A DNA stretch of 17,155 nucleotides, taken from Staphylococcus phage vB_SauP_ASUmrsa123. The translations under genes were made by a program, and so were the position numbers. Where the stretch lies: sequence record OR259390.1; one strand, 5' to 3'. Shown piece after piece: positions 1-17,155 of this stretch (its first letter is position 1; each line of letters begins with the position of its first letter). The notes beneath the pieces were generated by a model that saw only the letters and a program-made list of their open reading frames with translations, did no database searches and was not told where the DNA came from.

Positions 1-63
1 CCCACCGTTTAAAATAAACGATTATAAAAATCAAAACTTATAAATCAACTTATCATTTCTTTA

Positions 64-237
64 CTAAACTTATAAATACTGTGTAACTTATATTCCACTT
101 ATATAACAACTTACATATTCATATATTATCAACTTATAATTTCTATACTAAAATTATAAATACAGTGCATTACATTATTAACACTTATCTAACCTATTAC
201 ATATTCATCAATTACATTTATTATATATCTATTGACT
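64..237. repeat. Degenerate direct duplication of ~87 bp in the non-coding left leader. It contains multiple ACTTATA(A) motifs, two copies of AAA(C/A)TTATAAATAC(T/A)GTG (about 66-85 and 152-170) and two copies of TTACATATTCAT (about 110-123 and 198-211).
   Basis: Read directly from the sequence. The two motif pairs are each ~86-88 bp apart. No ORF with a ribosome-binding site lies in 1..335, and the region is AT-rich. Confidence 0.55.
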
Positions 238-256
238 TTTATCAAAAGTTATGATT

Positions 257-335
257 TTGACATTTAATAAAAATTAATTTACTTATTTAAATATTCTATG
301 ATATAATTAGTTATAAAATATTTGGAGGTGTCTAA
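257..335 (+). promoter_or_regulatory. Candidate promoter for the rightward structural operon. TTGACA at 257-262. Extended -10 TGaTATAAT at 299-307. RBS GGAGGTG at 324-330, 5 nt before the ATG at 336.
   Basis: Sequence motifs only. The extended -10 is a perfect TGnTATAAT. The TTGACA is ~37 bp upstream of the -10, so spacing is non-canonical; a separate weak -35 may be used or none needed. Confidence 0.45.
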
Positions 336-706
336 ATGACAGAATTTGAGGAAATCGTAAAACCAGACGACAAAGAAGAAAACTTCAGAATCAACTGAAG
401 AATCAACTGAAGAATCAACTGAAGAATCAACTGAAGAATCAACTGAAGATAAAACAGTAGAAACAATCGAAGAGGAAAACGAAAACAAATTAGAACCTAC
501 TACAACAGATGAAGATAGTTCGAAATTTGACCCTGTTGTATTAGGAGCAACGTATTACTTCATTAGAACAACAAGTGACTACTTTTTTATCTTCACAAAT
601 GCAACAACCACAAACACAAACAACACAACCAGATGTTACAGAAGCAGATAAAGAAGATAAAGACTATTCTGATGAAGAATTAGTTGATAAGTTAGATTTA
701 GATTAG
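336..706 (+). CDS. Highly acidic small protein (~123 aa) with an internal (ESTE)x5 repeat and C-terminus ...DYSDEELVDKLDLD. Read in 3 frames in this sequence (ATG at 336 stops at 396-398; repeat frame open 361..651; C-terminal frame 545..706).
   Basis: Strong RBS GGAGGTG plus ATG at 336. Three consecutive open frames with E/D/T/Q-rich composition. The second frame switch falls in the T6 run at 583-588; the first lies between 361 and 396. The negative-strand ORF 279..488 (SSVD repeats) is the shadow of the repeat. Confidence 0.5.
388..447 (+). repeat. Perfect tandem repeat, 5 x 12 bp GAATCAACTGAA, in frame (Glu-Ser-Thr-Glu per unit).
   Basis: Five identical units at 388-399, 400-411, 412-423, 424-435 and 436-447. 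The next unit diverges (GAT...). Confidence 0.95.
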
Positions 707-718
707 GAGGAAAATATT

Positions 719-892
719 ATGTATGAAGGTAACAATATGCGTTCTATGATGGGAACATCATATGAAGATTCAAGATTAAACAAACGAACAGAATTAAATG
801 AAAATATGTCAATTGATGTAAATAAAAGCGAGGATGAGTACGGTGTACAAATTCACTCTCACTTTCAAAACAGTCTTTTAGTGGAGACGTAG
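719..892 (+). CDS. Small 57-aa hypothetical protein immediately upstream of the major head gene (MYEGNNMRSMMGTSYEDSRLNKRTELNENMSIDVNKSEDEYGVQIHSHFQNSLLVET). Possible scaffolding or assembly factor by position.
   Basis: RBS AGGAGG (705-710) 8 nt before the ATG at 719. It is too short for the >=60 aa ORF track. The scaffold role is inferred from position only, by analogy to phi29 gene 7 preceding gene 8. Confidence 0.4.
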   Translation: MYEGNNMRSMMGTSYEDSRLNKRTELNENMSIDVNKSEDEYGVQIHSHFQNSLLVET

Positions 893-909
893 AGGAGGAA
901 TAATAAATT

Positions 910-2136
910 ATGGCACAAGCGAGTACAAAAAATGAAACTGCCCTTTAGTTGCAAAATCTGCAAAATCTGCATTGCAAGATTTTAATCATGATTATTCAAA
1001 ATCTTGGACATTTGGAGACAAATGGGATAATACAAACACAATGTTTGAAACATTTGTAAATAAATATTTATTCCTAAGATTAATGAGACTTTATTAATCG
1101 ATATCGCCTTAGGTAATCGTTTTAATTGGTTAGCTAAAGAACAAGACTTTATTGGTCAATATAGTGAAGAATATGTAATTATGGATACTGTCCCAATCAA
1201 CATGGATTTATCTAAAAAATGAAGAGTTAATGTTAAAACGTAACTATCCACGTATGGCTACTAAGTTATATGGTAGTGGTATTGTTAAGAAACAAAAATT
1301 CACATTAAATAATAATGATACACGTTTCAATTTCCAAACATTAGCAGACGCAACTAATTATGCTTTAGGTGTATATAAAAAGAAAATTTCAGATATTAAT
1401 GTATTAGAAGAAAAAGAAATGCGTGCAATGTTAGTTGATTATTCATTGAATCAATTATCTGATACAAATGTGCGTAAAACAACATCTAAAGAAGATTTAG
1501 CAAGCAAAGTTTTTGAAGCAATTTTAAACTTACAAAAACAACAGTGCTAAATATAATGAGGTTCATCGTGCGTCAGGTGGTGCCATTGGTCAATACACAA
1601 CTGTGTCTAAGTTAAAAGATATTGTTATTTTAACAACAGATTCATTAAAATCTTACCTATTAGATACAAAAATTGCTAACACGTTCCAAATTGCTGGTAT
1701 TGACTTCACAGACCATGTCATTAGCTTTGACGATTTAGGTGGTGTGTATAAAGTAACGAAAGAATTTAAATTACAAAATCAAGATACAATTGACTTTTTA
1801 CGTGCTTACGGGGATTATCAGTCACAAATTGGAGACACAATTCCAGTTGGTGCAGTATTTACTTATGATGTTTCTAAACTTAAAGAGTTTACTGTTAATA
1901 TTGAAGAAATTAAACCAAAATCAGATTTATATGCGTTTATTTTGGATATTAATTCAATTAAATATAAACGTTATACAAAAGGTATGTTAAAACCACCATT
2001 CCATAACCCTGAATTTGATGAAGTTACACACTGGATTCATTACTATTCATTTAAAGCCATTAGTCCATTCTTTAATAAAATTTTAATTACTGACCAAGAA
2101 GTAACACCAAAGCCAGAGGAAGAAGCAACAGAATAA
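910..2136 (+). CDS. Major head (capsid) protein, ~408 aa, frameshifted in this sequence. MAQASTKNETAL at 910 stops after 13 codons. Fragments 1230..1550 and 1603..2136 continue the same protein in other frames.
   Basis: RBS AGAGGAGG 891-898 and ATG at 910. Contiguous coding signal across 3 frames over ~1.2 kb. The position directly upstream of the portal gene and the size match the major head protein of 44AHJD/P68-like phages (assignment from memory of that family, not a search). Confidence 0.7.
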
Positions 2137-2151
2137 AAAGGAGCGTAAAAT

Positions 2152-3126
2152 ATGAACAACGATAAAAGAGGTTTAAACGTTGAATTATCAAAAGAAATCA
2201 ACAAAAGAGTTGTTGAACATCGCAACAGATTTAAACGTCTTATGTTTAATCGTTATTTGGAATTTTTACCGCTACTTATAAACTATACCAATCGTGACAC
2301 GGTTGGTATAGATTTTATACAGTTAGAGTCTGCATTAAGGCAAAATATTAATGTAGTTGTTGGAGAAGCTAGAAATAAACAAATTATGATACTTGGTTAT
2401 GTAAATAATACTTATTTTAATCAAGCACCAAATTTTTCATCAAACTTTAATTTCCAATTTCAAAAACGATTAACAAAAGAAGATATTTATTTTATTGTAC
2501 CTGACTATTTAATACCAGATGAATGCTTACAAATTCATAAACAATATGATAACTGTATGAGTGGTAATTTTGTTGTTATGCAAAATAAACCTATACAATA
2601 TAATAGTGATATTGAAATTATAGAGCATTATACAGATGAATTAGCAGAAGTAGTTTTATCTCGTTTTTCATTGATTATGCAAGCTAAATTTAGCAAGATA
2701 TTTAAATCTGAAATTAATGATGAGTCAATAAATCAACTTGTATCAGAAATATATAACGGTGCGCCGTTTGTTAAAATGTCCCCTATGTTCAATGCTGATG
2801 ATGATATTATTGACTTAACAAGTAATAGTGTGATACCTGCTTTAACAGAAATGAAAAGAGAATACCAAAATAAAATTAGTGAATTAAGTAACTATTTAGG
2901 TATTAACTCTTTAGCTGTTGATAAAGAAAGTGGTGTTTCTGATGAAGAAGCAAAAAGTAATCGTGGTTTTACAACATCAAATAGTAACATTTATTTAAAA
3001 GGTCGAGAACCTATTACGTTTTTATCAAAACGTTATGGTTTAGATATTAAACCGTATTATGATGATGAAACAACGTCTAAAATATCAATGGTAGATACAC
3101 TTTTAAAGATGAAAGCAGTGATATAA
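2152..3126 (+). CDS. Portal / upper collar (connector) protein, 324 aa, intact.
   Basis: Intact ORF with RBS AAAGGAG 2138-2144. Size and position (between head protein and lower collar) as in phi29-like podoviruses (phi29 gp10 analogue). Confidence 0.75.
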   Translation: MNNDKRGLNVELSKEINKRVVEHRNRFKRLMFNRYLEFLPLLINYTNRDTVGIDFIQLESALRQNINVVVGEARNKQIMILGYVNNTYFNQAPNFSSNFNFQFQKRLTKEDIYFIVPDYLIPDECLQIHKQYDNCMSGNFVVMQNKPIQYNSDIEIIEHYTDELAEVVLSRFSLIMQAKFSKIFKSEINDESINQLVSEIYNGAPFVKMSPMFNADDDIIDLTSNSVIPALTEMKREYQNKISELSNYLGINSLAVDKESGVSDEEAKSNRGFTTSNSNIYLKGREPITFLSKRYGLDIKPYYDDETTSKISMVDTLLKMKAVI

Positions 3127-3884
3127 ATGGCTAGATATACAATGACTTTATATGATTTTATTAAATCAGAATTGATAAAAAAAAGGTTTCAATGAATTTG
3201 TAAATGATAATAAATTAACTTTTTATGATGACGAGTTTCAATTTATGCAAAAAATGTTGAAATTTGACAAAGACGTTTTAGCAATCGTTAATGAAAAAGT
3301 ATTTAAAGGTTTTTCATTGAAAGATGAGTTATCAGATTTACTTTTAAAAAAATCATTTACGATTCATTTTTTAGATAGAGAAATCAACAGACAAACTGTT
3401 GAGGCATTTGGTATGCAAGTTATTACTGTATGTATTACACATGAGGATTATTTAAATGTGGTATATTCATCAAGTGAAGTCGAAAAAATATCTACAAGCG
3501 CAAGGGTATACAGAACACAATGAAGATACAATAAGTAACACTGATGAAACATCGAATCAAAATGCGACATCTTTAGACAATTCAACTGGCATGTCTGCAA
3601 ACAGAAACGCTTATGCTTCATTACCTCAAAGTGAGGTTAATATCGATGTTGATAATACAACATTACAATTTGCAGATAATAATACGATTGATAATGGTAA
3701 AACAGTTAATAAATCAAGTAATGAAAGCAATCAAAATGCAAAACGTAATCAAAATCAAAAAGGTAATGCAAAAGGAACACAATTCACAAAGCAGTATTTA
3801 ATTGATAACATTGATAAAGCGTATGATTTAAGAAAGAAAATTTTAAATGAATTTGATAAAAAATGTTTTTTACAAATATGGTAA
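3127..3884 (+). CDS. Lower collar protein (~252 aa), frameshifted. The ATG at 3127 overlaps the portal stop. The frame breaks near the A-homopolymer at 3176-3184 and again at ~3460-3520. The C-terminal part is an N/Q/S/T-rich low-complexity region.
   Basis: MARYTMTLYDFIKSELIKKRFQ stops at 3192-3194 (tga) just after the poly-A run. ORFs 3245..3523 and 3456..3884 continue. Position matches phi29 gp11-like lower collar. Confidence 0.6.
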
Positions 3885-3897
3885 AGGTGGTTAAATA

Positions 3898-5840
3898 ATG
3901 GCATTTAATGAAAATGATTTTAAATATTTTGATGACATCCGTCCTTTTATAGACGAAATATATAAAACAAGAGAAAGATATACACCGTTTTACGATGATA
4001 GAGCAGATTATAATACAAATTCAAAATCTTATTATGATTACTTATCAAAGTTATCACGTTTAATTGAAGTATTAGCACGTCGTATTTGGGAATATGATGA
4101 TGAACTTAAAAAACGTTTTAAAAATTGGGATGACTTAATGAAAGCATTCCCAGACCAAGCGAAAGACTTATTTAGAGGTTGGTTAAACGATGGTACGATT
4201 GATAACATCATTCATGATGAGTTTAAAAAATATAGTGCAGGATTAACATCGGCATTTGCTTTATTTAAAGTTACTGAAATGAAACAAATGAATGACTTTA
4301 AAGCAGAAGTTAAAGACTTAATTAAAGACATTGACCTTTTCGTTAATGGCTTTGAATTAAATGAGCTTGAACCAAAGTTTGTGATGGGCTTTGGTGGTAT
4401 TCGTAACGCAGTTAACCAATCTATTAATATCGATAAAGAAACAAATCACATGTACTCTACACAATCCGATTCTCAAAAACCTGAAGGTTTTTGGATAAAC
4501 AAATTAACGCCTAGTGGTGACTTAATTTCAAGCATGCGTATTGTACAGGGTGGTCATGGTACAACAATCGGATTAGAACGTCAATCCAACGGAGAAATGA
4601 AAATATGGTTACATCATGATGGTGTAGCAAAGCTTTTACAAGTTGCATATAAAGATAATTATGTATTAGATTTAGAAGAAGCAAAAAGGATTAACAGATT
4701 ATACACCACAGTCACTTTTAAACAAACATTCATTTACACCGTTAATTGATGAAGCAAATGACAAACTCGTTTTAAGATTCGGTGACGGCACGATACAGGT
4801 GCGTTCAAGAGCAGACGTAAAAAATCACATCGATAATGTAGAAAAAGAAATGACGATTGATAATTCAGAAAACAATGATAATCGTTGGATGCAAGGCATT
4901 GCTGTTGACGGTGATGATTTATACTGGTTAAGTGGTAACAGTTCAGTTAATTCACACGTTCAAATTGGTAAATATTCATTAACAACAGGTCAAAAGATTT
5001 ATGATTATCCGTTTAAATTATCATATCAAGACGGTATTAACTTCCACGTGATAATTTTAAAGAGCCTGAGGGTATTTGTATTTATACTAATCCAAAAAAC
5101 AAAACGTAAATCATTATTACTTGCTATGACTAATGGCGGTGGTGGAAAACGTTTCAATAATTTATATGGTTTCTTCCAACTTGGAGAATATGAACATTTT
5201 GAAGCATTACGCGCAAGAGGTGCACAAAACTATAAATTAACAAAAGACGACGGGCGTGCATTATCTATTCCAGACCATATCGACGACTTAAACGATTTAA
5301 CGCAAGCTGGTTTTTATTATATTGACGGTGGTACTGCAGAAAAACTAAAAACATGCCTACAAATGGTAGTAAACGTATTATTGACGCTGGTTGTTTCATT
5401 AACGTATACCCTACAACACAAACATTAGGTACTGTACAAGAATTAACACGTTTCTCAACAGGTCGTAAAATGGTTAAAATGATACGTGGAATGACATTAG
5501 ACGTATTTACATTAAAATGGGATTATGGTTTATGGTCAACAATCAAAACAGACGCACCATATCAAGAATATTTAGAAGCAAGTCAATATAATAACTGGAT
5601 ATCTTACGTTACGACACCTGGTGAATATTATATTACAGGCAATCAAATGGAATTGTTTAGAGACGCACCAGATGAAATTAAAAAGTGGGTGCATGGTTAC
5701 GTGTTTCAAGTGGTAACGCTGTCGGTGAAGTAAGGCAAACACTAGAAGCTAATGTTTCCGAATATAAAGAATTTTTCAGTAATGTTAATTCAGAAACAAA
5801 ACATCGTGAATATAATTGGGTAGCAAAACATCAAAAATAG
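3898..5840 (+). CDS. Tail fibre / receptor-binding protein (~647 aa), frameshifted into at least 5 segments (3898..4749, ~4750..5060, ~5040..5350, 5353..5733, 5700..5840).
   Basis: RBS AAAGGTGG before the ATG at 3898. Continuous coding signal in alternating frames. Alternative-frame readings through the ORF-track stops give sensible protein (e.g. ...NFPRDNFKEPEGICIYTNPK... across 5040-5100). Total length is typical for the P68-type tail fibre. Confidence 0.6.
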
Positions 5841-5851
5841 GAGTTATATAA

Positions 5852-6598
5852 ATGAAATCACAACAACAAGCAAAAGAATGGATATATAAACATGAGGGTA
5901 CTGGTGTTGACTTTGATGGTGCATATGGTTTTCAATGTATGGACTTAGCTGTTGCTTATGTATATTACATTACAGACGGTAAAGTTCGTATGTGGGGTAA
6001 CGCCAAAGACGCTATTAATAATGACTTTAAAGGTTTAGCAACGGTGTATGAAAATACACCGAGCTTTAAACCTCAATTAGGTGACGTTGCTGTTTATATT
6101 AATTCTCAATATGGTCATATCAATGTGTAACAAGTGGTAATTTAGATTATTATACATGCTTAGAGCAAAACTGGTTAGGTGGAGGTTTTGACGGTTGGGA
6201 AAAGCAACAATCAGAACACATTATTATGATGGTGTTACACATTTCATTCGTCCTAAATTTTCAGACAGTAATAGTCAAGTATTAGAACAAAAAATTCAAG
6301 AAACAAATTCATGGAATAAAAATCAATATGGTACATTATATAATTCTGAAAATGGTACATTTACATGTGGTTTTTACCAATATTTGCACGTGTTGGAAGT
6401 CCTAAATTAAGTGAACCGAATGGTTATTGGTTCCAACCAAACGGGTATACACCATATGATGAGGTTTGTTTATCCGATGGACTAGTGTGGATTGGTTATA
6501 ATTGGCAAGGCACACGTTATTATTTACCAGTGAGACAATGGAACGGTAAAACAGGTAATAGTTATAGCATTGGTTTACCCTGGGGGGTGTTCTCATAA
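5852..6598 (+). CDS. Endolysin with N-terminal CHAP domain and C-terminal SH3b-like cell-wall-binding domain (~249 aa), split into 3 frames (5852..6130, 6195..6410, 6365..6598).
   Basis: CHAP hallmarks: ...GFQCMDLAVAY... (catalytic Cys) and ...VYINSQYGHI... (His). C-terminal ...NGYWFQPNGYTPYDEVCLSDGLVWIGYNWQGTRYYLPVRQWNG... is an SH3_5-type wall-binding domain. RBS TAGGAG before the ATG at 5852. Confidence 0.85.
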
Positions 6599-6659
6599 TG
6601 GGTATTTTAGGTTTTTCTTTGAGTTTAGTTGGAAAAGATACAAATAAGAGGTGTAAAAT

Positions 6660-7591
6660 ATGGCTGATAGAATCGTAAGAAGTTTAAGGGGTATTGATTC
6701 AGTAGATAAGTTAAACGACAATTTAGTAGAAGCAAATGACTTAATTACAACTAAAGACGATAACATATATATAAGACGTGATGAGGATTATTATAAGTTA
6801 ACCTTTAAAGATGAATTATTAGAAAAAATTAATACAAACACAAATTCAATTGATAAAAATAAAAATGATATCGCTACAAAATAAAAACAATATATCTCAA
6901 AATGCAACAGATATTATTCATATTAAAGAGGATAATATACAACAAGATAAAAATTAAAAATTTATCTGATACACAATCAAGAACATACAAATAAAATAAA
7001 CAATCACGATGACGCTATTTTGTTATTAGATGATGAAAATACAAAAAACAAATTAGCAATTGAAACGAATAAACAAGATATCATCGCTACAAAAGAAACA
7101 ATCGGACAAAATAAACAAAGTATAGAAAATTTAGCTTCAACGGTTTCAAACAACTTACAATTGAAACAAGTAAAAAAATCGAATCAACTAAAACAGAATT
7201 AATAGATAAAATTAACAATTCCAAAAACAAATGTAATTGATACAGGTTGGCAAGATATAACATTAGAAAGTGGTATTACTGCAAGTGATTCAAGTGGTGG
7301 TTATCCTTCTCCGCAATACCGTATTATTACAATTAATAATATTCGTACAATACAAATAAGAGGGTATTAAAAGGAATTAAGAAAAACGGAGATATTAAAT
7401 TAGGTAGTATTAATGCTAATTTAAAAACAACACATCACTATACACAATGTGCTATTGATACAAAAATGATAAATACAAGAATGTATTTAAATTTTAACAA
7501 CGAATTACATTTTGTTACATCATCGTATCAAGATAGTGAATTAACAAATGGTGATAAACGTTTTGTAATAGATACACAAATCATTGAATAA
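6660..7591 (+). CDS. Fibre-like structural protein (~310 aa). The N-terminal coiled-coil region carries repeated NK(N/Q)DI(I)ATK motifs and the C-terminal region is beta-rich. It is the most heavily disrupted gene in the window, with >=6 frame changes.
   Basis: RBS AGAGGTG 6647-6653 and ATG at 6660. Segments 6660..6884, 6885..6956, 6957..7202, ~7150-7245 and 7203-7370 then join to 7591 in different frames; each is open and compositionally coherent. The identity (head fibre vs tail appendage) is uncertain. Confidence 0.4.
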
Positions 7592-7601
7592 AAATGATAT
7601 A

Positions 7602-7637
7602 ATAGTCGTATAAATAATTTATACGACTATTTTTTAT
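7602..7637 (+). terminator. Rho-independent terminator or attenuator inside the late operon. Stem ATAGTCGTAT / ATACGACTAT (10 bp) at 7602-7611 and 7621-7630, 9-nt loop, then TTTTTAT.
   Basis: Perfect 10-bp inverted repeat followed by a T5 run, 11 nt after the stop of the preceding gene and just before the RBS of the tail-knob gene. Confidence 0.6.
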
Positions 7638-7648
7638 GGAGGTAAAAA

Positions 7649-9410
7649 ATGAGAAAATTAACAAATTTTAAGTTTTTCTATAACACACCGTTTACAGACT
7701 ATCAAAATACAATTCATTTTAATAGTAATAAAGAACGTGATGATTATTTTTAAACGGTCGTCATTTTAAATCTTTAGACTATTCAAAACAACCGTATAAT
7801 TTTATTCGTGATAGAATGGAAATTAATGTTGATTTGCAGTGGCATGACGCACAAGGGATTAACTATATGACGTTTTTATCAGATTTTGAGGACAGACGTT
7901 ATTATGCTTTTGTGAATCAAATCGAATATGTGAATGATGTTGTGGTTAAAATATATTTTGTGATTGATACTATTATGACGTACACGCAAGGTAATGTATT
8001 AGAGCAACTCTCAAACGTTAATATTGAACGTCAACACTTATCAAAACGCACGTATAACTATATGTTACCAATGTTACGTAACAATGATGATGTGTTAAAA
8101 GTAACGAATAAAAACTATGTGTATAACCAAATGCAACAGTATTTGGAAAAATTTAGTGTTATTCCAGTCAAGCGCTGATTTATCAAAGAAATTTGGTACG
8201 AAAAAAAGAGCCAAACTTAGATACGTCTAAGGGTACGATATATGACAATATCACATCACCAGTCAACTTATACGTTATGGAATATGGTGACTTTATTAAC
8301 TTTATGGATAAAATGAGTGCATATCCATGGATTACACAAAACTTTCAAAAAGGTTCAAATGTTACCTAAAGACTTTATTAATACAAAAGATTTAGAGGAC
8401 GTTAAAACAAGTGAAAAAAATTACTGGATTAAAGACGCTAAAACAAGGTGGAAAATCAAAAGAATGGAGTTTAAACGATTTATCATTAAGTTTCACAAAG
8501 CTTCAAGAAATGATGTTGTCTAAAAAGACGAGTTTAAACATATGATACGTAATGAGTACATGACGATTGAATTTTACGATTGGAACGGGAATACGATGTT
8601 ACTCGACGCTGGTAAGATTTCTCACAAAAAACAGGTGTTAAGTTACGTACAAAGTCAATCATTGGTTATCATAATGAAGTGCGAGTTTATCCAGTAGATT
8701 ATAACAGTGCTGAAAATGATAGACCGATACTTTCTAAAAATAAAGATATATTAATTGATACAGGTTCATTCTTAAATACAAATATAACATTTAATAGTTT
8801 TGCGCAAGTACCTATATTAATTAATAACGGAATTTTAGGGCAATCACAACAAGCTAATAGACAGCGTAATGCAGAAAGTCAATTAATCACAAGTCGTATA
8901 GATAATGTATTAAATGGTAGTGACCCCGAAATCACGTTTTATGACGCTGTAAAGTGTAGCAAGTAATTTAAGTCCAACTGCTTTATTTGGTAAGTTTAAT
9001 GAAGAATATAATTTCTACAAACAACAACAAGCAGAATATAAAGATTTAGCATTACAACCACCATCAGTGACTGAATCAGAAATGGGAAACGCATTCCAAA
9101 TTGCAAACAGTATTAACGGTTTAACGATGAAAATTAGTGTACCGTCACCTAAAGAAATTACATTTTTACAAAAATATTATATGTTGTTTGGTTTTTGAAG
9201 TAGAATGACTATAATTCATTTATTGAACCAATTAACAGTATGACTGTTTGCAACTATTTAAAATGTACAGGTACGTATACTATACGTGACATTGACCCCA
9301 TGTTAATGGAGCAATTAAAAGCAATTTTAGAATCGGGTGTGAGATTTTGGCATAATGACGGTTCAGGTAATCCAATGTTACAAAATCCATTAAATAATAA
9401 ATTTAGATAG
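7649..9410 (+). CDS. Tail knob protein (phi29 gp9-like, ~587 aa), frameshifted into many segments (e.g. 7649..7753, 7816..8178, 8317..8523, 8679..8966, ...9410).
   Basis: The N-terminus MRKLTNFKFFYNTPFTDYQNTIHFNSNKERDDYF and the following ...RRYYAFVNQIEYVNDVVVKIYFVIDTIMTY resemble the conserved N-terminal region of phi29 gp9 (…NDYKNTRWFTS…[32 protein letters not shown]…). RBS GGAGG 7638-7642. Coding signal continues in alternating frames to 9410. Confidence 0.65.
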
Positions 9411-9421
9411 GAGTTTTAATT

Positions 9422-9841
9422 TTGAATGAAGTAAAAGTAAGATTTACAGATACAGAAGCATTTCATATGTTTATTTATGCAGGAGATTTAAAATTATTAT
9501 ATTTCTTATTTGTATTAATGTTTATCGACATTATTACAGGTATAGCAAAAGCCATTAAGAATAATAATTTATGGTCAAAGAAATCTATGAAAGGGTTTGC
9601 TAAAAAATTACTCATTTTTTGTATTATTATACTAGCAAATATCATTGACCAAATTTTACAATTAAAAGGTGGGTTACTCATGATAACGATATTCTATTAT
9701 ATCGCAAATGAGGGCTTATCTATTGTTGAAAATTGTGCAGAAATGGATGTATTAGTGCCAGAACAAATTAAAGATAAATTAAGTGTAATTAAAAATGATT
9801 CTGAAAAGAGTGATAATAATGAACGACCAAGAGAAGATTGA
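9422..9841 (+). CDS. Holin, 139 aa, intact, phi29 gp14-like class with predicted transmembrane segments. Likely TTG start.
   Basis: Hydrophobic helices LKLLYFLFVLMFIDIITGIAKAI, LLIFCIIILANIIDQIL and GGLLMITIFYYIANEGL, followed by a charged C-terminal tail (…SEKSDNNERPRED). RBS TAGGAG 9407-9412, 9 nt before TTG at 9422. Confidence 0.75.
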   Translation: MNEVKVRFTDTEAFHMFIYAGDLKLLYFLFVLMFIDIITGIAKAIKNNNLWSKKSMKGFAKKLLIFCIIILANIIDQILQLKGGLLMITIFYYIANEGLSIVENCAEMDVLVPEQIKDKLSVIKNDSEKSDNNERPRED

Positions 9842-11204
9842 TAAATTTACGCATTCGTATATTAATGATGATTTCGGTTTAACGATAGACCAGTTAGTCC
9901 CTAAAGTAAAAGGGTATGGACGCTTTAATGTATGGCTAGGTGGTAATGAAAGTAAAATCAGACAAGTATTAAAAGCAGTAAAAGAGATAGGTGTGTCACC
10001 TACTCTTTTTGCTGTATATGAAAAAATGAAGGGTTTAGCGCTGGTTTAGGTTGGTTGAACCATACATCTGCACGAGGTGACTATTTAACAGACGCTAAAT
10101 TCATTGCAAGAAAAATTAGTATCACAATCAAAACAAGCAGGACAACCGTCTTGGTATGACGCAGGTAACATCGTTCACTTTGTACCTCAAGACGTACAAA
10201 GAAAAGGTAATGCAGATTTTGCTAAAAATATGAAAGCAGGTACAATCGGACGTGCGTATATTCCATTAACAGCAGCGGCTACTTGGGCGGCATATTATCC
10301 CCTAGGTTTGAAAGCGTCATATAATAAAGTACAAAACTATGGTAATCCTTTTTTAGACGGTGCAAATACTATTTTAGCATGGGGTGGTAAATTAGACGGT
10401 AAAAGGTGGCTCGCCTAGTGATTCGTCTGACAGTGGTAGTAGTGGTGACAGTGGTAGTTCACTGCTCGCTTTAGCAAAACAAGCTATGCAAGAATTATTA
10501 AAAAAAGTACAAGACGCATTACAATGGGATGTACACAGTATAGGTAGTGACAAATTTTTTAGTAATGATTATTTTACATTACAAAAACATTCAACAACAC
10601 ATATCATATTAAAATGACGATTGGGTTACTCGATTCATTAAAAAAACTGATTGATAGCGTGCAAGTAGATAGTGGGGGTAGTAGTTCAAACCCTACTGAT
10701 GATGACGGAGACCATAAAGCAATTAGTGGTAAATCAGTCAAACCAAACGGAAAAAGTGGTCGTGTGATTGGTGGTAACTGGACGTATGCACAGTTACCAG
10801 AAAAATATAAAAAAGCAATTGGTGTACCTTTATTCAAAAAAGAATACTTATACAAACCAGGTAACATATTTCCTCAAACGGGTAATGCAGGACAATGTAC
10901 AGAATTAACATGGGCGTATATGTCACAACTACATGGTAAAAGACAACCTACCGACGACGGACAAATAACAAACGGTCAACGTGTGTGGTATGTTTATAAA
11001 AAGTTAGGTGCTAAAACAACGCACAACCCTACTGTTGGTTATGGTTTTTCAAGTAAACCACCCTACTTACAAGCAACAGCATATGGCATTGGTCACACTG
11101 GTGTTGTTGTAGCTGTATTTGACGATGGTTCATTCTTAATTGCAAACTATAATGTACCACCTTACGTTGCGCCGTCACGTGTGGTGTTGTATACACTCAT
11201 GTAA
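9819..11204 (+). CDS. Virion-associated peptidoglycan hydrolase / tail spike protein with a C-terminal CHAP domain (~460-480 aa), frameshifted (9819..10049, 10104..10418, ~10420..10610, 10614..11204). The true 3' end may extend to ~11258 in another frame.
   Basis: C-terminal …GNAGQCTELTWAY… (Cys) and …GIGHTGVVVAVFDDGSFLIANYN… (His) form a CHAP-type motif. A Gly/Ser linker SDSSDSGSSGDSGSS is encoded at ~10420-10470. The ATG at 9819 overlaps the holin 3' end by 23 bp. Confidence 0.65.
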
Positions 11205-11354
11205 TGGTGTACCAGAAAATGCTGGTGATAATATTGTATTCTTTAGTGGTATTGCTTAATTAAATATGTTATAATGAACACATGCTAGTAATGCTAGTAA
11301 ATAAAATACAAAACATAATCAATTTTCGTACACATTTTTCATGTTATCTCAAAG

Positions 11355-11388
11355 AAAAAGGCAACTGTTATTTAACAGTTGCCTTTTT
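11355..11388. terminator. Bidirectional rho-independent terminator between the convergent arms. AAAAAGGCAACTGTTA-TTT-AACAGTTGCCTTTTT.
   Basis: 13-bp perfect inverted repeat with an A-run on one side and a T-run on the other. It overlaps the stop codon (11368-11370) of the negative-strand polymerase gene. Confidence 0.8.
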
Positions 11389-13658
11389 AATGTCATCGTG
11401 TTGCATTTTTAATATATTTAAATTTGATTTATTATGTACTGAACGTTCAACTGGAAATAAATCATTAAGTGAAAATGAACCAATGTCACTTTCAATATAA
11501 AGAATATCATCAAATTGACTATGGTCAAATTTTTCTCTAGCGTCTTTTAAGATAAATTCACGTTTTAAATTAAGTTCATCAGTAAAATATTCATCATATA
11601 CATTACCACATACAATTTCTGTTTTAGACGGATAAATCGAAATCGTACCTTGTTCATTATAGATACTTTTATTGTTTTCAATAATCGCGCCGTCAAAGAA
11701 TTGTTCACGTACAAAGGTTTCAAAATCGACGCTTGTATCAAAGGCGTTTTTCGGTATACCAGCAGAAGCAATTTTAATCTTTCCATTCACTTCATATGCA
11801 TATTTCTTATGATTCAGTACAAACATCTTATCTATCTGTTCGTTTTCAATATCCCATTTACCTAAGGCTATCGGGTCAAATAAATCGGGGTTTAACAAGG
11901 GCTTTACAACGGATTTCATATATACAAACTATCAGTATCGCAATAAATAAAATTGTCGTCAACTTCACTTTCCGTTAAGTATTGAAAGGTACTAATAAGT
12001 TATACAATGAACGTGATGTGACAAATGTAGAGAATAAAATATTACGTTCCGTGTTTTTATAACCGTTAATGATATTGTATAGTGCATTGTTATCATCTAA
12101 ACGAAATAAGTTAAAATGTGAACGTAAAGCGGGTATACCATATAAACCATTAAGTACTACTTTTGACAACATAACCTCCTCATTTGAGTATGGGTGTTCG
12201 TTGATGTCATCAGTGATATGATAGTCGTAAGGTGTTGTCATATTGATTTTATTCTTTAATTTACCTTGTGTTTTAATAAAATAGTTTTGAAATATAATAT
12301 CTCGTGCGTGGAAGTATTCACATTCATATACCACAAACGAATTAACACGTATATGCGTGCAATCAATACCCGTAATGTCTTGAATCATTCTTAATGTATT
12401 TGTATTGATATTAACGTAATCATTATCGTTATTATAGTATTTAACAATCATCTGACGTAATACGCGCGATTTGATTTTAATTAATACCTCATCGTTAAAT
12501 ACCTCTTTATCAATCTTATATAATGAAAAATAATTGTTATCATCTAAAAAAGTAGGGATTAACGTTGGTTCTGAATAGTGTTCATAAAAGTATAACCATG
12601 TCGGAATTTTCTCATGATACATCACATAAGGATAACTAGAATTAATATCAATTGAAAAACAAGGCTCATCAATGAGTTTGTTTTATGTATTTGGTGTTAT
12701 ACATATTCAAACCTCCACGGTAAAACGATTTGATATAGTCATAAAAATTCATATCATGGAATTGGTAATGTGTGTAAGATATCTTGATATCTTGATATTA
12801 GTTGAGTAATTGAAAACGTGTCATTTCGTTGTTCAAATAGGATTTCATGATATTTAGTGAGAATGTTAATTTGTTATAGTCAAAATTTGGAAAAATGTCA
12901 CTATAATGAATATGGCACATACCTAATATAATCACGTCATTATGAATGTAAGTTAATTGTTCAGATGTAAGATTATCATAACACTTAACAGCATAGTCAT
13001 AGGCTTCACTATCTGACATATCATTATCTTTATCAAAAATTGTATAATTAAAATCTGTTTTTAAGTTGGTTTTCTGTTAAATAACCTCCGTCAAGTAATT
13101 TCTTACCTAATATTGCTATTGATGTATTGGTTTTCATAAAGTTATCAATGATATTAAATTTAAAACCATTTAAAAACATCGTTAAATCTAAATTGATTGA
13201 AGATTTAACACGTTTTTCTAAAATCACATTTTGATTTTTGCTAAATAGTAACCTCTTGCATTTTTAGTGTTTGTTCATTTTCTTCTGCAGATTTTAAATA
13301 TATATTTTCACGTGTGATATTATCAAAATAACGCATAGTGTCTTTAAGTAAAAAAATGATTGTCGTACTTATTACAGTTATGTGCAATCATAATAATATC
13401 TGTTTTTGATTTTGTGATTGTATCACGACGGTTAACATACTTGTAAAAATCATCATAAAAGGCTTCAAAACTAGGGAATACTTCAACATCAATTTCGTAA
13501 CCATTAAACCAACCAATCGCAACAGAATACGTTACGTTTTTATATAGCGTTGGTTTATTACGTCCGTTTATTTTATTGTATGATAATGTTTCAATATCCC
13601 AATACAATATCATTTTGCTTTGATTTTTATGATATTTCATACACTCAAGTAATCCCAT
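11368..13658 (-). CDS. Protein-primed family-B DNA polymerase (phi29 gp2-like, ~760 aa), frameshifted >=6 times (fragments 13344..13658, 12798..13019, ~12660..12720, 11975..12659, 11924..11974 and 11368..11919).
   Basis: Motifs found in the expected order on the negative strand: ExoI LYWDIETL; ExoII IMIAHNCNKYDNHFF; ExoIII LTYIHNDVII; pre-motif-A SFYRGG; motif A DINSSYPYVMY; motif B KVVLNGLYG; motif C IYCDTDSLYI (only readable by shifting frame at ~11925-11975); KxY region VLNHKKYAYEV. Frame breaks occur at e.g. ~11925, ~11975, ~12655, ~12790 and 13020-13340. The likely true start is the ATG at 13658 with RBS AAAAGGTG. Confidence 0.85.
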
Positions 13659-13673
13659 AATCTTACACACCTT

Positions 13674-14921
13674 TTATAAACCGTATTGTTTCATTAAATA
13701 CTTCTTTGTATTTTCTATATAGTTATCTTCATATATTTTTTCTTTTCTTTCAAATTCGTTGATGTTTTTCTTCATTTCATTTTTTATATGAAATTTTATA
13801 ATTTTATTCATGTCTAAATATAAATATCTATCATTATCAACCACGTAATTTTTCGAATATGCATTGTCAAAATGTAAATTGCTTGGATTGTAATAATAAC
13901 GTTCATGTTTTCTTTATAAAACATATCTTCTCTTAGATAAATAACATTGTCGTCTATATCTTTGATTTTAGTACAAAACTCATATTGTTTTTGTATAAGG
14001 TATAACAATGATGTTAGCATTAAATGTATCAACATTATACATAATTTTTATATATTTATCGTCAGTTTTTAATATAGAAAAAATCACCGTTTTGGTTAAT
14101 ATGATTTCTTAAATTATCATCTGCCAAATTATATTCGTTAAATTCAAACTCGCCAGTTGTCATAGCGTCATCATTTGAATTAAACGCACGTGTATTACGC
14201 TTTTCATTGACGTAATCGTTTCGACGCATTTCTAAAAAATGTTTTTGTAAAGTCTTGATGTATTCATTTTATGTTTTTGTAATAAATTATAAATATTTAA
14301 ATTGGATAATATAGGACTTGAAAAGTTGACAGCATTACCTAGTAAAACAATTTTTGGAAAACCAATATAATCAACATTACCATGGTTACGGTCGATTGAT
14401 TCATAAATTGTTTTTAACTTATCCCACTCATCAATTAAATAGTCATCTTCAAGCGCTAAGAATTCATCATATATAATAATAGGGTAGTGTTTTAAAAGTT
14501 AGAATGATATTTTAAATCAGTAGCGCTATTCAAATCTGTAATCACACCGATTTCTTTATCTTGATAAATAATAGCTAAATAGTCCCTAGCGCTTCTGAAT
14601 GTGACACGCTTAGATTTGAATAGTGGGTTTTTGTCTATGATTTCCTCAATAAAATCACGATAAGCGTCACGTAATGTATAATGACGTGATAATAAAGTAA
14701 ATTTAATATCAAGTTTTATAGCTAAATAAATAAAGAATGAAACATAGTTGAACGATTTTCCGTCAGAACGGTTTGAAATAGATATATAATAGTCTATATC
14801 ATCATTCATGAGTTCATCAACTAATTCTATTTGATTATAGTTTTCTGGTATTTTTTTCCTTACATGATTGACCGCATTTTGATAATCTCTTACCATGTCT
14901 AAACGATTTTTGTTTCACCAT
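13674..14921 (-). CDS. DNA encapsidation (packaging) ATPase, phi29 gp16-like (~410 aa), frameshifted. The start ATG at 14921 has RBS AAGGAG. The fragment 14492..14896 carries the Walker-A-like motif. The 3' boundary is approximate.
   Basis: …[16 protein letters not shown]… is a P-loop variant comparable to phi29 gp16 [22 protein letters not shown]… starts in a frame offset from the 14896 fragment. Continuous coding signal runs down to the polymerase start. Confidence 0.55.
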
Positions 14922-15105
14922 GTTTTTGCTCCTTATAATAGTTTATAATGTCATTTACAGTATTAAAGTTATTCGTCAAATGTTGCATAATATAAAAAGT
15001 TATACCTCACATTGATATCATCTATTGTTGTTTTTTGATCTATCTGATTTTCCTATTTCAAAAAATAAGTTATCAATTTCTTTAATATATTTTGTAAGTG
15101 AAGAT

Positions 15106-15454
15106 TTATTTTTTCGGCGTGTAAATTATATAATGCATATTTATGCATTTTTGCATTTTGTTATTATCATTACGGTTATATATTTCTAGTATATGATTTA
15201 ATTGTTTATGTTTTTTACCACGAACTAATGAAACAGCGTTTACATAAGACACATTTTTTGTCTTTTGGTAAATGTGGTAAATGTGAAAAATGTTTCCATG
15301 CGTCAATATAAGCCTCTTGTAAATCTTTATCGTCAAATTTAAAATTGATACCGTTAAAATCATTTTTATATTTTTTTCTTCTCTTTCTTTTTCTAGCTTC
15401 TCTTTCTTTTTTCCATCTATCCATTGCAGACGTATGTCTAACCAATGTTATCAA
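15106..15454 (-). CDS. Small, very basic protein (…WKKEREARKRKRRKKYKNDFNGINFKFDDKDLQEAYIDAWKHF…), probably ~110 aa but split over two overlapping frames (15215..15454 and 15106..15363). Function unknown.
   Basis: Two overlapping ORFs on the same strand with consistent composition, and a run of K/R residues. Start codon is uncertain (TTG at 15454 directly abutting GGAGG, or the ATG of MDRWKK at ~15424). Confidence 0.35.
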
Positions 15455-15610
15455 CCTCCATATAAACCATATATAACCACTAAAAGATAATGTAGAATAT
15501 AATCAATGTAGTAAATAAAACACCAAATGACACACGTATATGCATTGTCATAAGTATTACAAGTGTAATTAAAAAATGCTAAAGAAAAATGATAATTATA
15601 TTAAGTAGGT

Positions 15611-16013
15611 TATTCATGTTCAATCACATTTCCGTTTTTATATATAACTTTGTTTTGATAAATAATCATTAATTCGCTTTCAATAGGTTTATCAAAATTT
15701 GATAATACGTCGTCTATTGTAACATCTAATAAAATTTCTTTTTAAATTCATTACTTAAATAATCTCTATAATAAAATACAAGCATATTAAAAACATGTTT
15801 TTTAATATCAATGTTGATATCTATCGTAAATAAATCATTATTATTTTTTGTATCACTATCATAGTATTCAATAGTAATTTCACCGTATCTAACAAAAACA
15901 ACACACTTTTCCACTTAGTGATGTAAATTTTGTTATTTTATTCATAAAACAATCTCTATTATCTAAAATATAATTAATTAATTTTTTGTGTTTAATGTTG
16001 TTGTAATATTCAT
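15611..16013 (-). CDS. Hypothetical early protein (~130 aa), frameshifted (MNITTTLNTKN… / …EKCVVFVRYGEITIEYYDSDTKNNNDLFTIDINIDIKKHVFNMLVFYYRDYLSNEFKKKFY / …LDVTIDDVLSNFDKPIESELMIIYQNKVIYKNGNVIEHE).
   Basis: RBS AAGGAG 7 nt upstream of the ATG at 16013 (negative strand). Three successive open frames on the negative strand, one of which is ORF 15726..15914. Confidence 0.3.
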
Positions 16014-16020
16014 TTTTATA

Positions 16021-16192
16021 TCTCCTTAATGTATTCTATGATATAGGCATATTTTTCTGTAAATGGATTATATTCATAATATGAATATAAAACTTTAGCG
16101 TCATATAAATCTTCAAACATTGCTATTTGATGTGGTAAATGACCTTTAATCTCATCACAATATAATAATACCGTTTTGTATTTACGTTCCAT
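16021..16192 (-). CDS. Small 57-aa hypothetical protein (MERKYKTVLLYCDEIKGHLPHQIAMFEDLYDAKVLYSYYEYNPFTEKYAYIIEYIKEI), intact.
   Basis: RBS GAGGTG 6 nt upstream of the ATG (negative strand, ATG = reverse complement of 16190-16192). Just below the 60-aa threshold of the ORF track. Confidence 0.45.
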
Positions 16193-16341
16193 TTAAGCAC
16201 CTCATAAAAATAGGGGATAAACACCTATGAAATTTTTATTAAAATGATACTTGACCAAAGTTGATTGAGTAACCTTTTTTGACCTTTTTTATTTTCATAT
16301 TCATAAAATTGAGAACACGACTTCGCCTTTATTAATAATGT

Positions 16342-16611
16342 CTACCTAACATCTTCATCTTGACGCATGTCTTTAATTAATTCAGTTAAGTGATTAGGTA
16401 AGTTTACGTTATAGTCATCAGTTACGATAACACCCTGTTCTCCGAATTTTGATTCTTTGTTTGTGAATAATGCTCTAACGATGTATTCTTTTTTTATTCC
16501 ATATTTTTCTACAAGTTCTGAAAGTTTGATAAATTCTCTTTCTTTTTCCTCAAAGTCAAATCTCGCTAATGTGTTTTGGTGTCTTGATAAAATATCTTTT
16601 ACGTTTGTCAT
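16342..16611 (-). CDS. 89-aa hypothetical early protein, intact. The first gene downstream of the repeat-containing early promoter region.
   Basis: RBS AAAGGAG ~9 nt upstream of the ATG (reverse complement of 16609-16611). Clean ORF. No recognisable motif by eye. Confidence 0.55.
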   Translation of the reverse strand: MTNVKDILSRHQNTLARFDFEEKEREFIKLSELVEKYGIKKEYIVRALFTNKESKFGEQGVIVTDDYNVNLPNHLTELIKDMRQDEDVR

Positions 16612-16628
16612 AATAAATAATCTCCTTT

Positions 16629-16737
16629 AATGTTTTTTGTGTGTCGTGTTGTTGATAAGTTATTTTGATTCAGCAATACTAATATTTAATAAGTCGTTAT
16701 AATACACTTGCATTGTTTTTGTGTGTCGTGTTGTTGA
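16629..16737. repeat. Pair of 27-bp direct repeats, TGTTTTTTGTGTGTCGTGTTGTTGATAAG (16629-16655) and TTGTTTTTGTGTGTCGTGTTGTTGAAAG (16711-16737), ~82 bp apart. They lie in the intergenic region upstream of the leftward early genes.
   Basis: A 21-bp identical core, TTTTGTGTGTCGTGTTGTTGA, occurs twice and is unusually GC- and GT-rich for this genome. It lies between two negative-strand genes, immediately 5' of the RBS of 16342..16611. Confidence 0.85.
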
Positions 16738-16784
16738 AAGTAATGTATATGTGTCTGGTAATAATTCTTTAGCTTGTTGCTTAG

Positions 16785-17155
16785 TTAAATGATACTCATG
16801 TAATGGGAAAAATTTTCAATATATTCATCTTTATCATCGAGATAATTAAGAATATAACCTTTAACACGTAAAGTAACAATCTCGTCAGGTTTCATTATAT
16901 CACTCCTTTCTAAAAACGTAAACGTTATATGTTTCATAAAAACTTTTATGCATATCCCATTGTTCCAAAGCGTCATCTGTAATGTATGATAGTACAGATG
17001 TTGGTTCAATTTCATTGTTAAGTTTGTCGTTTAAGAACTTAACAATATGTGTGTTATAGTTTAATAACAGTTGTTGGCAAGCTGAAACTAAATTGATAGC
17101 ATTATCAAATGTATAAGCTGGATTCCATTCAATTAACTTATTGAATAGTTGCAAC
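16785..17155 (-). CDS. Early gene truncated by the right window edge (>=120 aa if the 16900..17154 and 16785..16895 segments are one frameshifted gene). Alternatively a 36-aa ORF MKPDEIVTLRVKGYILNYLDDKDEYIENFSHYMSII with its own RBS.
   Basis: ORF 16900..17154 runs off the window. RBS AAGGAGTGA precedes the ATG at 16895 (negative strand), overlapping the stop of the upstream segment. Confidence 0.3.

Follow-up and report, generated by a model that had tools for sequence, protein, structure and literature searches.

The window, i.e. the whole 17155-nt stretch of record OR259390.1 analysed here, corresponds to a near-complete genome of a Rosenblumvirus (a P68/44AHJD-like Staphylococcus podovirus), colinear with its relatives, which bears out the P68/44AHJD-family affiliation implied in the initial annotation. 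Considering the records covering at least 80% of the window, 72 Rosenblumvirus records are colinear with it at 92-94% nucleotide identity and span 97-100% of its length, GRCS and vB_Sau-F2 being likewise colinear at 92-94%, while no record exceeds 95% overall identity. With GRCS, the identity reaches 92.4% across 100% of the window, for a genus threshold of at least 70%. The 20 GRCS, SCH1 or SA03 proteins falling within the window span are all colinear (20/20), with order and strands conserved, and the approximately 20 genes form two convergent arms, namely a structural/lysis arm on one strand and an arm with the polymerase, packaging ATPase and early genes on the opposite one (Table 1). The window is phage DNA from end to end, no host flank being present within it, and any flanks would lie beyond its ends. 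Compared with GRCS, ~30 nt are missing on the left and ~690 nt on the right, the latter comprising hyp1 and the right terminal repeat; no terminal inverted-repeat pair was found in the window but, as the sequence is incomplete on the right, this does not count against membership in Rosenblumvirus.

Table 1. Genes of the window, with the state of their reading frames as deposited.
Feature	Position	Strand	State of the reading frame
Inner core protein (hyp21)	336..703	+	2 frameshifts: A insertion near 379-381, G insertion at 544
"Arstotzka" small protein (hyp20)	719..900	+	CT dinucleotide insertion, 856-857
Major capsid protein	910..2133	+	4 frameshifts: 943 (T4>T3), 1072 (C3>C2), 1214 (A5>A6), 1534 (A4>A5)
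Portal (upper collar)	2152..3131	+	1 frameshift: T5>T4 at 3100-3104
Lower collar	3127..3881	+	2 frameshifts: A7>A8 at 3177-3184, A5>A6 at ~3483
Tail fibre / receptor-binding ("minor tail") protein, 647 aa	3898..5837	+	5 frameshifts: 4683, 5043, 5094, 5346, 5679
Endolysin (amidase)	5852..6595	+	3 single-base deletions: 6120, 6199, 6370
Tail protein, 309 aa (short form)	6660..7588	+	6 frameshifts: 6878, 6948 (A7>A5), 6980, 7155 (TT insertion), 7221, 7363
Tail knob (phi29 gp9-like), 587 aa	7649..9415	+	11 frameshifts: 7746, 8147, 8201, 8347, 8414, 8521, 8620, 8951, 9192, 9202, ~9409; extra hidden +1/-1 pair at 8924/8937
Holin	9422..9838	+	0 frameshifts (1.7 expected, P(0) = 0.19)
CHAP-domain tail-tip lysin	9819..11256	+	5 frameshifts: 10020 (A7>A6), 10111, 10400 (non-templated T), 10582, 11201 (non-templated G)
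Protein-primed family-B DNA polymerase	11375..13658	-	7-8 frameshifts: 11383, 11918, 11983, 12681, 13058, 13235 with 13244, 13350
DNA packaging (encapsidation) ATPase	13677..14921	-	6 frameshifts: 13903, 13988, 14066, 14236, 14493, 14907
hyp8, ~155 aa	14972..15445	-	At least 4 frameshifts: 15031, 15108, 15157 (TTTG repeat unit lost), 15254, 15388
hyp7 and hyp6 (small early genes)	15454..16013	-	Both frameshifted; hyp7: deletion at ~15481-15485, and +1/-1 pair at 15571/15581 making an in-frame stop; hyp6: 3 frameshifts at ~15742, ~15906, ~15988
hyp5, 58 aa	16019..16192	-	Intact
Single-stranded DNA-binding protein (SSB)	16242..16611	-	3 frameshifts: 16275, 16305, 16346
hyp3 and hyp2	16663..17154	-	hyp3: 1 frameshift at ~16808-16816; hyp2: none, 5' end removed by the window end

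The gene order and the convergent arms are shared with GRCS (NC_023550), vB_Sau-F2 (PP910832), SCH1 (NC_047788) and SA03-CTH2 (MK936475), as is the YCDTDS motif of the polymerase, and the nucleotide identity to these four phages rises to 100% in blocks. The window differs from its relatives in the missing right terminal ~690 nt (hyp1 and inverted terminal repeat), in a nearest relative that changes from block to block and, as the sequence is written, in the frameshifting of every gene longer than ~450 nt. The YCDTDS motif lies at 11928-11945 on the minus strand, a few nucleotides off the place first given for it, and the AT insertion at 11918 breaks the frame directly after it.

A 10-genome alignment of the window and nine relatives shows at least 68 indel events that are private to the window and found in none of the nine references; their lengths are never divisible by 3 and 58 of them are of 1 bp, whereas the finished relatives phage 66, phiAGO1.3, 351Saur083PP, GRCS and SCH1 carry 0-4 private events each. 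Against the locally closest reference the count is 84, a few being errors of the reference itself, and a frameshift-aware protein alignment gives 65 coding frameshifts in 17 of the 20 genes; the 30-40 indels initially estimated were thus far too few. Some 0.4-0.5% of positions are affected, at a density of about one indel per 220-250 nt. Further hidden +1/-1 indel pairs were also observed beyond the events counted. As initially described, the long genes are broken across frames, the longest stop-to-stop frames being of 325, 284 and 250 aa vs. 782, 648 and 597 aa in GRCS, and the reference proteins map colinearly onto the window as fragments in differing frames, so that the failure of colinearity named in the initial annotation as its own refutation did not occur. 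The span of 2-7 frame changes per gene has to be widened to 1-11, the upper end being reached in the 587-aa tail knob gene. The portal gene, once thought intact, has lost a T at 3100, 27 nt 5' of the stop, turning the last 10 residues from FKDESSDING into LKMKAVI. Nor are all the short genes intact: hyp21, hyp20, hyp8, hyp7, hyp6, the SSB gene and hyp3 are frameshifted, leaving only the holin gene, hyp5 and the edge-truncated hyp2 clean. For the holin gene and hyp5, this is accounted for by their shortness (for hyp5, P(0) = 0.5). Coding and intergenic DNA are hit at equal density, with 63 and 5 indels respectively for an intergenic share of 5% (p = 0.39).

The indels sit mostly at A/T homopolymers, as the initial annotation had it: 36 of the 58 single-base events fall in runs of at least 4, which make up 11.9% of bases (p = 2e-19), the other 22 lying outside such runs. 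The runs singled out at the time fared unequally: the A8 at 3177-3184 does hold an indel, the references having A7 there, but the T6 at 583-588 and the A5 at 12655-12659 read the same in 9/9 references and carry no indel, the true breaks nearby being the G insertion at 544 and a T3>T4 change at 12681-12684. The indel rate per A/T run increases monotonically over true lengths 1 to 7 (0.1, 0.2, 0.8, 4, 9, 23 and 45%); a dependence on homopolymer length alone would also be expected from real replication slippage. Insertions outnumber deletions at run lengths 3-5 (20:7), vs. 4:11 at lengths 6-7 (p = 0.004), i.e. short A/T runs are over-called and long ones under-called. This switch from insertion to deletion with increasing run length amounts to a regression of the called length, which signal-based length calling would be expected to produce. 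Five inserted bases are unlike either neighbour and, for those five, replication slippage offers no explanation. In a few cases the error concerns a dinucleotide or tetranucleotide repeat unit, and a few single-base insertions are non-templated.

The substitutions present a very different picture. Twelve 400-bp segments, totalling ~4.8 kb, have no substitution relative to one relative or another, most of them with 1-5 indels (about one per 250 nt), e.g. 801-1600, in the capsid region, and 3601-5200 vs. F2, 6801-7200 vs. GRCS and 13601-14000 vs. SCH1; along the tail fibre / receptor-binding gene, 0-1 mismatch per 400 nt separates the window from F2. For positions 4600-5400, the best match among 50,697 phage records reaches 99.4% identity, the differences being indels only. 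Non-triplet indels and private substitutions stand at 68:63 in the window and at 4:788 when the finished relatives are pooled (Fisher p = 9e-61), which puts the ratio of the window some 200-fold above natural divergence in Rosenblumvirus. In corrected frames and against three references, the substitutions distribute as 421, 112 and 55 over codon positions 3, 1 and 2, with 363 synonymous and 140 nonsynonymous codons. Of the 31 isolated private coding substitutions on the terminal branch, 17 are synonymous (p = 4e-4 against 25%) and 13 nonsynonymous, the latter being a greater share than on deeper branches, for which a few substitution errors, but also a slight relaxation of selection, could account. 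Judged from these patterns, purifying selection is still visible in the substitutions.

Once the private indels alone are removed, nearly all genes become single-frame, full-length matches, and the frame-corrected proteins are 92-100% identical to those of the closest relatives, with 17 of the 20 reaching at least 96%. The portal protein (326/326 aa) and the CHAP lysin (473/477 aa) match their closest relatives, the 309-aa tail protein that of GRCS (305/306 aa), and the packaging ATPase (410/412 aa) and the polymerase (728/757 aa) those of SCH1. One stop is left over after correction, namely a private nonsense substitution, CAA>TAA, at 12798-12800 in the polymerase gene; it may be real or a rare base-call error, and lies in a stretch without a near-identical relative.

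Taken together, the window very probably represents the assembled consensus of a genuine and functional Rosenblumvirus genome in which the indels are artefactual, and we infer that these are sequencing or assembly errors in the consensus rather than changes in the DNA molecule. The error sits at the level of the consensus and not of raw reads, since a near-zero substitution error combined with ~0.4-0.5% indels over 17 kb denotes an assembly-consensus error. A chemistry or workflow misjudging run lengths, e.g. low-coverage flow-based sequencing such as 454/Ion Torrent or an unpolished nanopore assembly, would let ~70-85 small indels enter the consensus while base identity stays almost error-free; short A/T runs would gain one base and long runs lose length, and each error would shift the reading frame in silico, so that all genes above ~450 nt would look shattered. 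Four marks of such an artefact are found here, namely private indels, indels in large excess over substitutions, a run-length-dependent rate and conserved full-length ORFs regained on correction. In phage assemblies, homopolymer indels were shown to split DNA polymerase and tail-fibre genes and to disappear upon polishing (PMC10438801), and homopolymer-associated indel errors were also reported for pyrosequencing reads (PMC3115854). As in the 454/Ion Torrent and nanopore homopolymer artefact (PMC10438801, PMC3115854), indels in the window far exceed substitutions, their rate climbs with run length and long runs are under-called; the polymerase and tail genes are likewise split into several apparent ORFs and homologue-guided correction clears the errors. 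The indel density in the window, with 65 coding frameshifts over 17 kb, is nonetheless far above that in PMC10438801, where a genome had one or two frameshifts, and the over-calling of 4-5-mers (16 insertions, 5 deletions) is prominent compared with known homopolymer artefacts.

In addition to indel errors, and not instead of them, the consensus could be a chimera drawn from mixed related Rosenblumviruses, for instance from a cocktail or environmental sample, which we regard as an outside chance. Among nine references, the closest relative switches in blocks, being F2-like at 401-1600 and 3601-6800, GRCS-like at 2401-3200 and 6801-8000, SCH1-like at 8001-8800, 10001-11200 and 12801-14800, and SA03-like at 16001-16400, often at 99-100% substitution identity, and the lack of any record above 95% overall also fits a mixture. 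Natural recombination among co-circulating podoviruses would give the same mosaicism, however, the detailed comparison was confined to those nine references, and blocks 8801-10000, 12001-12800 and 15201-15600 have no close match in known records, which a mix of known phages would not produce.

The initial annotation had ruled out a viable phage for the sequence as written and had left the choice between an error-rich read or assembly and a decayed, non-functional copy; the homopolymer-type error is supported, with the assembly consensus taking the place of the read, and decay is strongly argued against. In the latter case, the indels would be real slippage mutations accumulated without selection in a podovirus genome that is defective, host-carried or part of a mixed population. 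Coding and intergenic DNA struck equally is what absence of selection would give, replication slippage likewise depends on homopolymer length, the essential polymerase gene bears a nonsense substitution and the genome lacks its right end. Yet neutral decay fixing ~70 indels should bring many substitutions, mostly nonsynonymous, where ~4.8 kb has none; the indel-to-substitution ratio is ~200-fold too high for natural divergence in the genus, the synonymous bias persists on the terminal branch, and the switch from insertion to deletion together with the non-templated insertions is better explained by measurement error than by slippage. Host DNA flanks are likewise lacking within the window, and an exact-string search returned no match in 185,579 bacterial and archaeal genomes. 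The Rountreeviridae are strictly lytic, protein-primed phages for which no integrated form is known. With pseudogene decay, as in degenerating genomes or prophage remnants, the window shares numerous frameshifts, equal damage to coding and non-coding DNA and a nonsense codon, but not the substitution load, the relaxed synonymous bias, the large deletions, the insertion sequences or, within its span, the host flanks. It is the colinear fragments, the private indels, the zero-substitution segments, the equal coding and intergenic densities, the over-/under-call pattern and the purifying selection that favour error over decay, which we hold to be very improbable.

Even less credit can be given to indels physically present in a hypermutated, defective Rosenblumvirus in which slippage indels outpace substitutions, for example because its protein-primed polymerase is a slippage-prone variant, or because a helper phage propagates the defective genome. 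Many of the sites are A/T runs of 5-8, where slipping by ribosomes and RNA polymerases can occur, but programmed ribosomal frameshifting or transcriptional slippage restoring the frames of real and tolerated indels is vanishingly improbable, as it would have to correct shifts of both +1 and -1 at 65 sites spread over 17 genes, up to 11 times per gene, which at even 50% efficiency per site leaves essentially no full-length product, with 22 of 58 single-base events outside runs of at least 4 and with no site common to any of the nine relatives, whose ORFs are unbroken and whose flanking sequences are identical; this lack of conservation effectively refutes it.

With the indels read as consensus errors, the fragmented genes of this Rosenblumvirus would be a matter of data quality and not of biology, and the record needs re-sequencing or polishing.

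The fragmentation of the long genes is not a biological feature and, with every testable sequence-level feature pointing the same way, appears to belong to a known class, namely the homopolymer indel artefact. Identity, synteny and the polymerase motif together place the window as a member of Rosenblumvirus. Whole-window megablast against 50,697 phage records matched 105 records, 104 of them Staphylococcus phages, with a single colinear match covering at least 80% of the window in 72 of the 105; the top matches were GRCS (92.4% identity over 100% of the window) and vB_Sau-F2 (93.6% over 97%), and the 95-100% identity band was empty for the whole window in this search. The matching relatives are Rosenblumvirus (Rountreeviridae) phages whose 17-18 kb genomes carry some 20 genes arranged as two convergent arms. 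The window corresponds to positions 31-17179 of the 17,869 nt of GRCS, being short by about 30 nt on the left and cut inside hyp2 on the right, where some 690 nt are missing relative to GRCS 17180-17869 (the remainder of hyp2, together with hyp1 and the right inverted terminal repeat); the genome as deposited is incomplete. An inverted-repeat scan returned no terminal pair in the window, where terminal repeats are not demonstrable because the right end is missing. Host DNA was not found within the window, and neither the tRNA scan nor the Rfam scan gave any hit there.

The ORF map is fragmented, the longest stop-to-stop frames reaching 325, 284, 250 and 235 aa vs. 782, 648, 597 and 489 aa in GRCS. 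When GRCS proteins were searched by tblastn, they matched as colinear pieces in differing frames (seven for the polymerase, five for the tail knob and four for the endolysin), and when each gene was aligned with its closest relative, protein to DNA and allowing for frameshifts, 17 of the 20 genes showed breaks of this kind, 65 in all, which bears out the initial annotation as to long genes broken across frames. When the window was aligned with nine relatives in MAFFT, 68 indel events were private to the window (shared with none of the nine), all of them non-multiples of three and 58 of them single bases; the same alignment gave 0 private indels for phage 66, 1 each for phiAGO1.3 and 351Saur083PP, and 4 each for GRCS and SCH1. 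The figure of 68 is a lower bound, because this strict criterion misses events where the references vary in length (the 309-aa tail protein gene, hyp6 and hyp7) and makes neighbouring +1/-1 pairs look like clustered substitutions. Counted against the locally closest reference, the events number 84, a figure raised a little by errors that belong to F2 itself (4104, 5901 and 6708-6783). The actual total lies at about 70-85, some twice the 30-40 first proposed. A seeming 2-bp GC deletion at 13240 was rejected, as inspection resolved it into two separate 1-bp run deletions, and a stop at polymerase residue 139 was spurious, arising from gap-filling with GRCS bases at that place.

Frameshifts per gene, notable indel events and closest-relative blocks in the window
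Feature	Position in window	Frameshifts
Tail knob (587 aa)		11
DNA polymerase		7
309-aa tail protein		6
Packaging ATPase		6
647-aa tail fibre / receptor-binding protein		5
CHAP lysin		5
Capsid		4
hyp8		4
Endolysin		3
hyp6		3
SSB (single-stranded DNA-binding protein)		3
Lower collar		2
Inner core protein		2
Portal		1
hyp20		1
hyp7		1
hyp3		1
Five insertions unlike either neighbouring base	9202, 10400, 11201, 15906, 16654	
Repeat-unit events	856 (CT), 8620 (TC), 11918 (AT), 15157 (one TTTG lost)	
Repeat-unit events, two-base run losses	6948 (A7 to A5), 16223 (C4 to C2)	
Seeming substitution clusters, in fact +1/-1 pairs about 10 nt apart	8924/8937, 13235/13244, 15571/15581	
F2-like blocks	401-1600, 3601-6800	
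GRCS-like blocks	2401-3200, 6801-8000	
SCH1-like blocks	8001-8800, 10001-11200, 12801-14800	
SA03-like block	16001-16400	
Blocks only 91-95.5% identical to any relative compared	8801-10000, 12001-12800, 15201-15600	

With the true run length reconstructed for every 1-bp event, the rate of such indels per A/T run climbs through 0.1, 0.2, 0.8, 4, 9, 23 and 45% for lengths 1 to 7. Runs of at least 4 make up 11.9% of the bases and hold 36 of the 58 single-base events (p = 2e-19), A or T being involved in 50 of the 58, and the ratio of insertions to deletions is 20:7 at run lengths 3-5 vs. 4:11 at lengths 6-7 (p = 0.004). Assignment of a sequencing platform from this spectrum was rejected, the over- and under-calling of runs fitting flow chemistry and the di- and tetranucleotide unit errors fitting nanopore consensus.

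The individual breaks proposed initially are a mixed set. The run near 3176-3184 is indeed a lesion (A8 at 3177-3184, A7 in relatives), while T6 at 583-588 and A5 at 12655-12659 are the same in all nine relatives, the true lesions nearby being a G insertion at 544 and a T3 to T4 expansion at 12681-12684. The polymerase motif YCDTDS was found with a frame break adjoining it, an AT dinucleotide insertion at 11918-11919 directly after the motif, which itself lies at 11928-11945 on the minus strand rather than at about 11935-11952. The portal, taken to be intact, carries a T5 to T4 deletion at 3100 altering its C-terminus from ...DTLFKDESSDING to ...DTLLKMKAVI. As for the short genes, all of which had been thought intact, frameshift-aware alignment left just three without a break, namely holin, hyp5 and hyp2, the last truncated at the window edge; at the observed rate of about one frameshift per 250 coding nt, the probability of none is 0.19, 0.50 and 0.38, respectively, and their integrity is a chance expectation.

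Taken in 400-nt blocks, the closest relative changes along the window, often at 99-100% substitution identity, and this switching reflects either natural mosaicism or chimeric assembly. A chimeric consensus built from a phage mixture, which would add to the artefact and not replace it, fits the block-wise change among F2, GRCS, SCH1, SA03 and 351Saur083PP but is judged unlikely; natural recombination accounts for the change equally well.

Run-length dependence alone is not decisive between artefact and decay, because replication slippage has the same property; five other observations are decisive. In twelve 400-bp segments, adding up to about 4.8 kb, there are zero mismatches to a relative, yet most of these segments carry 1-5 indels. 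The stretch 4600-5400 has four indels, and indels are all that sets it apart from its best match among all phage records, at 99.4% identity. Private non-triplet indels and substitutions number 68:63 in the window, about half of these 63 being misaligned indel pairs, vs. 4:788 in five clean relatives pooled (Fisher p = 9e-61). Read in the frames of the references, the differences that are private to the window with respect to three of them fall 421/112/55 at codon positions 3/1/2, the codons concerned being 363 synonymous and 140 nonsynonymous. Among the 31 isolated coding substitutions private with respect to all nine relatives, 17 are synonymous, about 25% being expected if random (p = 4e-4); of these 31 on the terminal branch, 13 are nonsynonymous, a share compatible with a few errors among the substitutions. 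The indels show no sign of selection, 63 being coding and 5 intergenic in a window that is 5% intergenic (p = 0.39). Finally, once the private indels alone are deleted or filled, almost every gene aligns over its full length in a single frame, and the proteins read from the corrected frames share 92-100% identity with relatives.

A consensus with run-length miscalls would account for all five observations, i.e. the zero-mismatch segments, the indel to substitution ratio, the synonymous bias, the coding vs. intergenic distribution and the reversibility. A substitution error close to zero, with indels at about 0.4-0.5%, points to a consensus and not a raw read. Where the initial annotation offered an error-rich read or assembly or else a decayed copy, the evidence favours the miscalled consensus and neither the raw read nor the decay. 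That the indels are real and the genome a decayed copy is very improbable, since neutral drift fixing some 70 frameshifts could neither have stayed substitution-free over kilobases nor have preserved the synonymous bias; the window does not behave as a pseudogene in decay. Restoration of the frames by programmed recoding or frameshifting is next to inconceivable with 65 sites in both directions, none conserved in relatives. Homopolymer indels splitting the DNA polymerase and tail-fibre genes, and removed by polishing, are described in phage assemblies (PMC10438801), where the same artefact occurs on a smaller scale.

The sole non-indel lesion is a private G to A at 12800 (plus strand), which turns polymerase codon 287 from CAA to TAA (12798-12800, minus strand), G being present in all nine relatives. 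The window-specific 33-mer with this codon had no match in viral, genome and metagenome contig collections, and no near-identical relative of 12380-12860 was found. The TAA is either a rare base-call error or a real mutation, the two not being separable because the best match to these surrounding 480 nt reaches only 95.6%.

Regarding the relatives, PP910832.1 (vB_Sau-F2) also looks indel-rich, with the same kind of problem: 20 of its 21 private indel events are non-multiples of three, its annotation is without the 309-aa tail protein, hyp8, hyp6 and hyp1 genes, and its CDSs for the lower collar (start 3291), tail protein (start 4136) and endolysin are 5'-shortened. The tail protein gene 3' of the endolysin occurs in a short form of about 299-309 aa (window, GRCS, F2, Simurgh, phiAGO1.3, 351Saur083PP and SA03) and a long form of 481 aa with an extra, repetitive, coiled-coil-like insert of about 520 nt (SCH1 and Portland), the difference mapping to 6930-7000 of the window (matching columns in references L004, L005 and L007). 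The annotation of phage 66 divides the long form into two ORFs (6629-7306 and 7622-8074); the gene there has ACTTTAAG, which contains TAA, where SCH1 and Portland have ACTTGAAA. Within 9395-9425 of the window, the holin gene has TTG as apparent start, as in SA03-CTH2, where GRCS, SCH1 and others have ATG; the holin region of the window is closest to SA03 (93%), unlike the flanking regions.

The value of the result is practical, not biological. Annotation or reference use of the record would carry over some 65 false frameshifts, along with truncated proteins and spurious short ORFs by the dozen, and the same errors would enter protein families, phylogenies and receptor-binding or lysin constructs built from it, while gap-counting identity figures underestimate the relatedness of the window. 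PP910832.1 is likewise unsafe as an uncritical reference. The useful products are a caution on the record, a per-gene error map and an underlying phage worth clean re-sequencing. Beneath the errors, this phage is an ordinary, probably functional Rosenblumvirus and, at less than 95% identity to any deposited genome, may represent a new species-level lineage.
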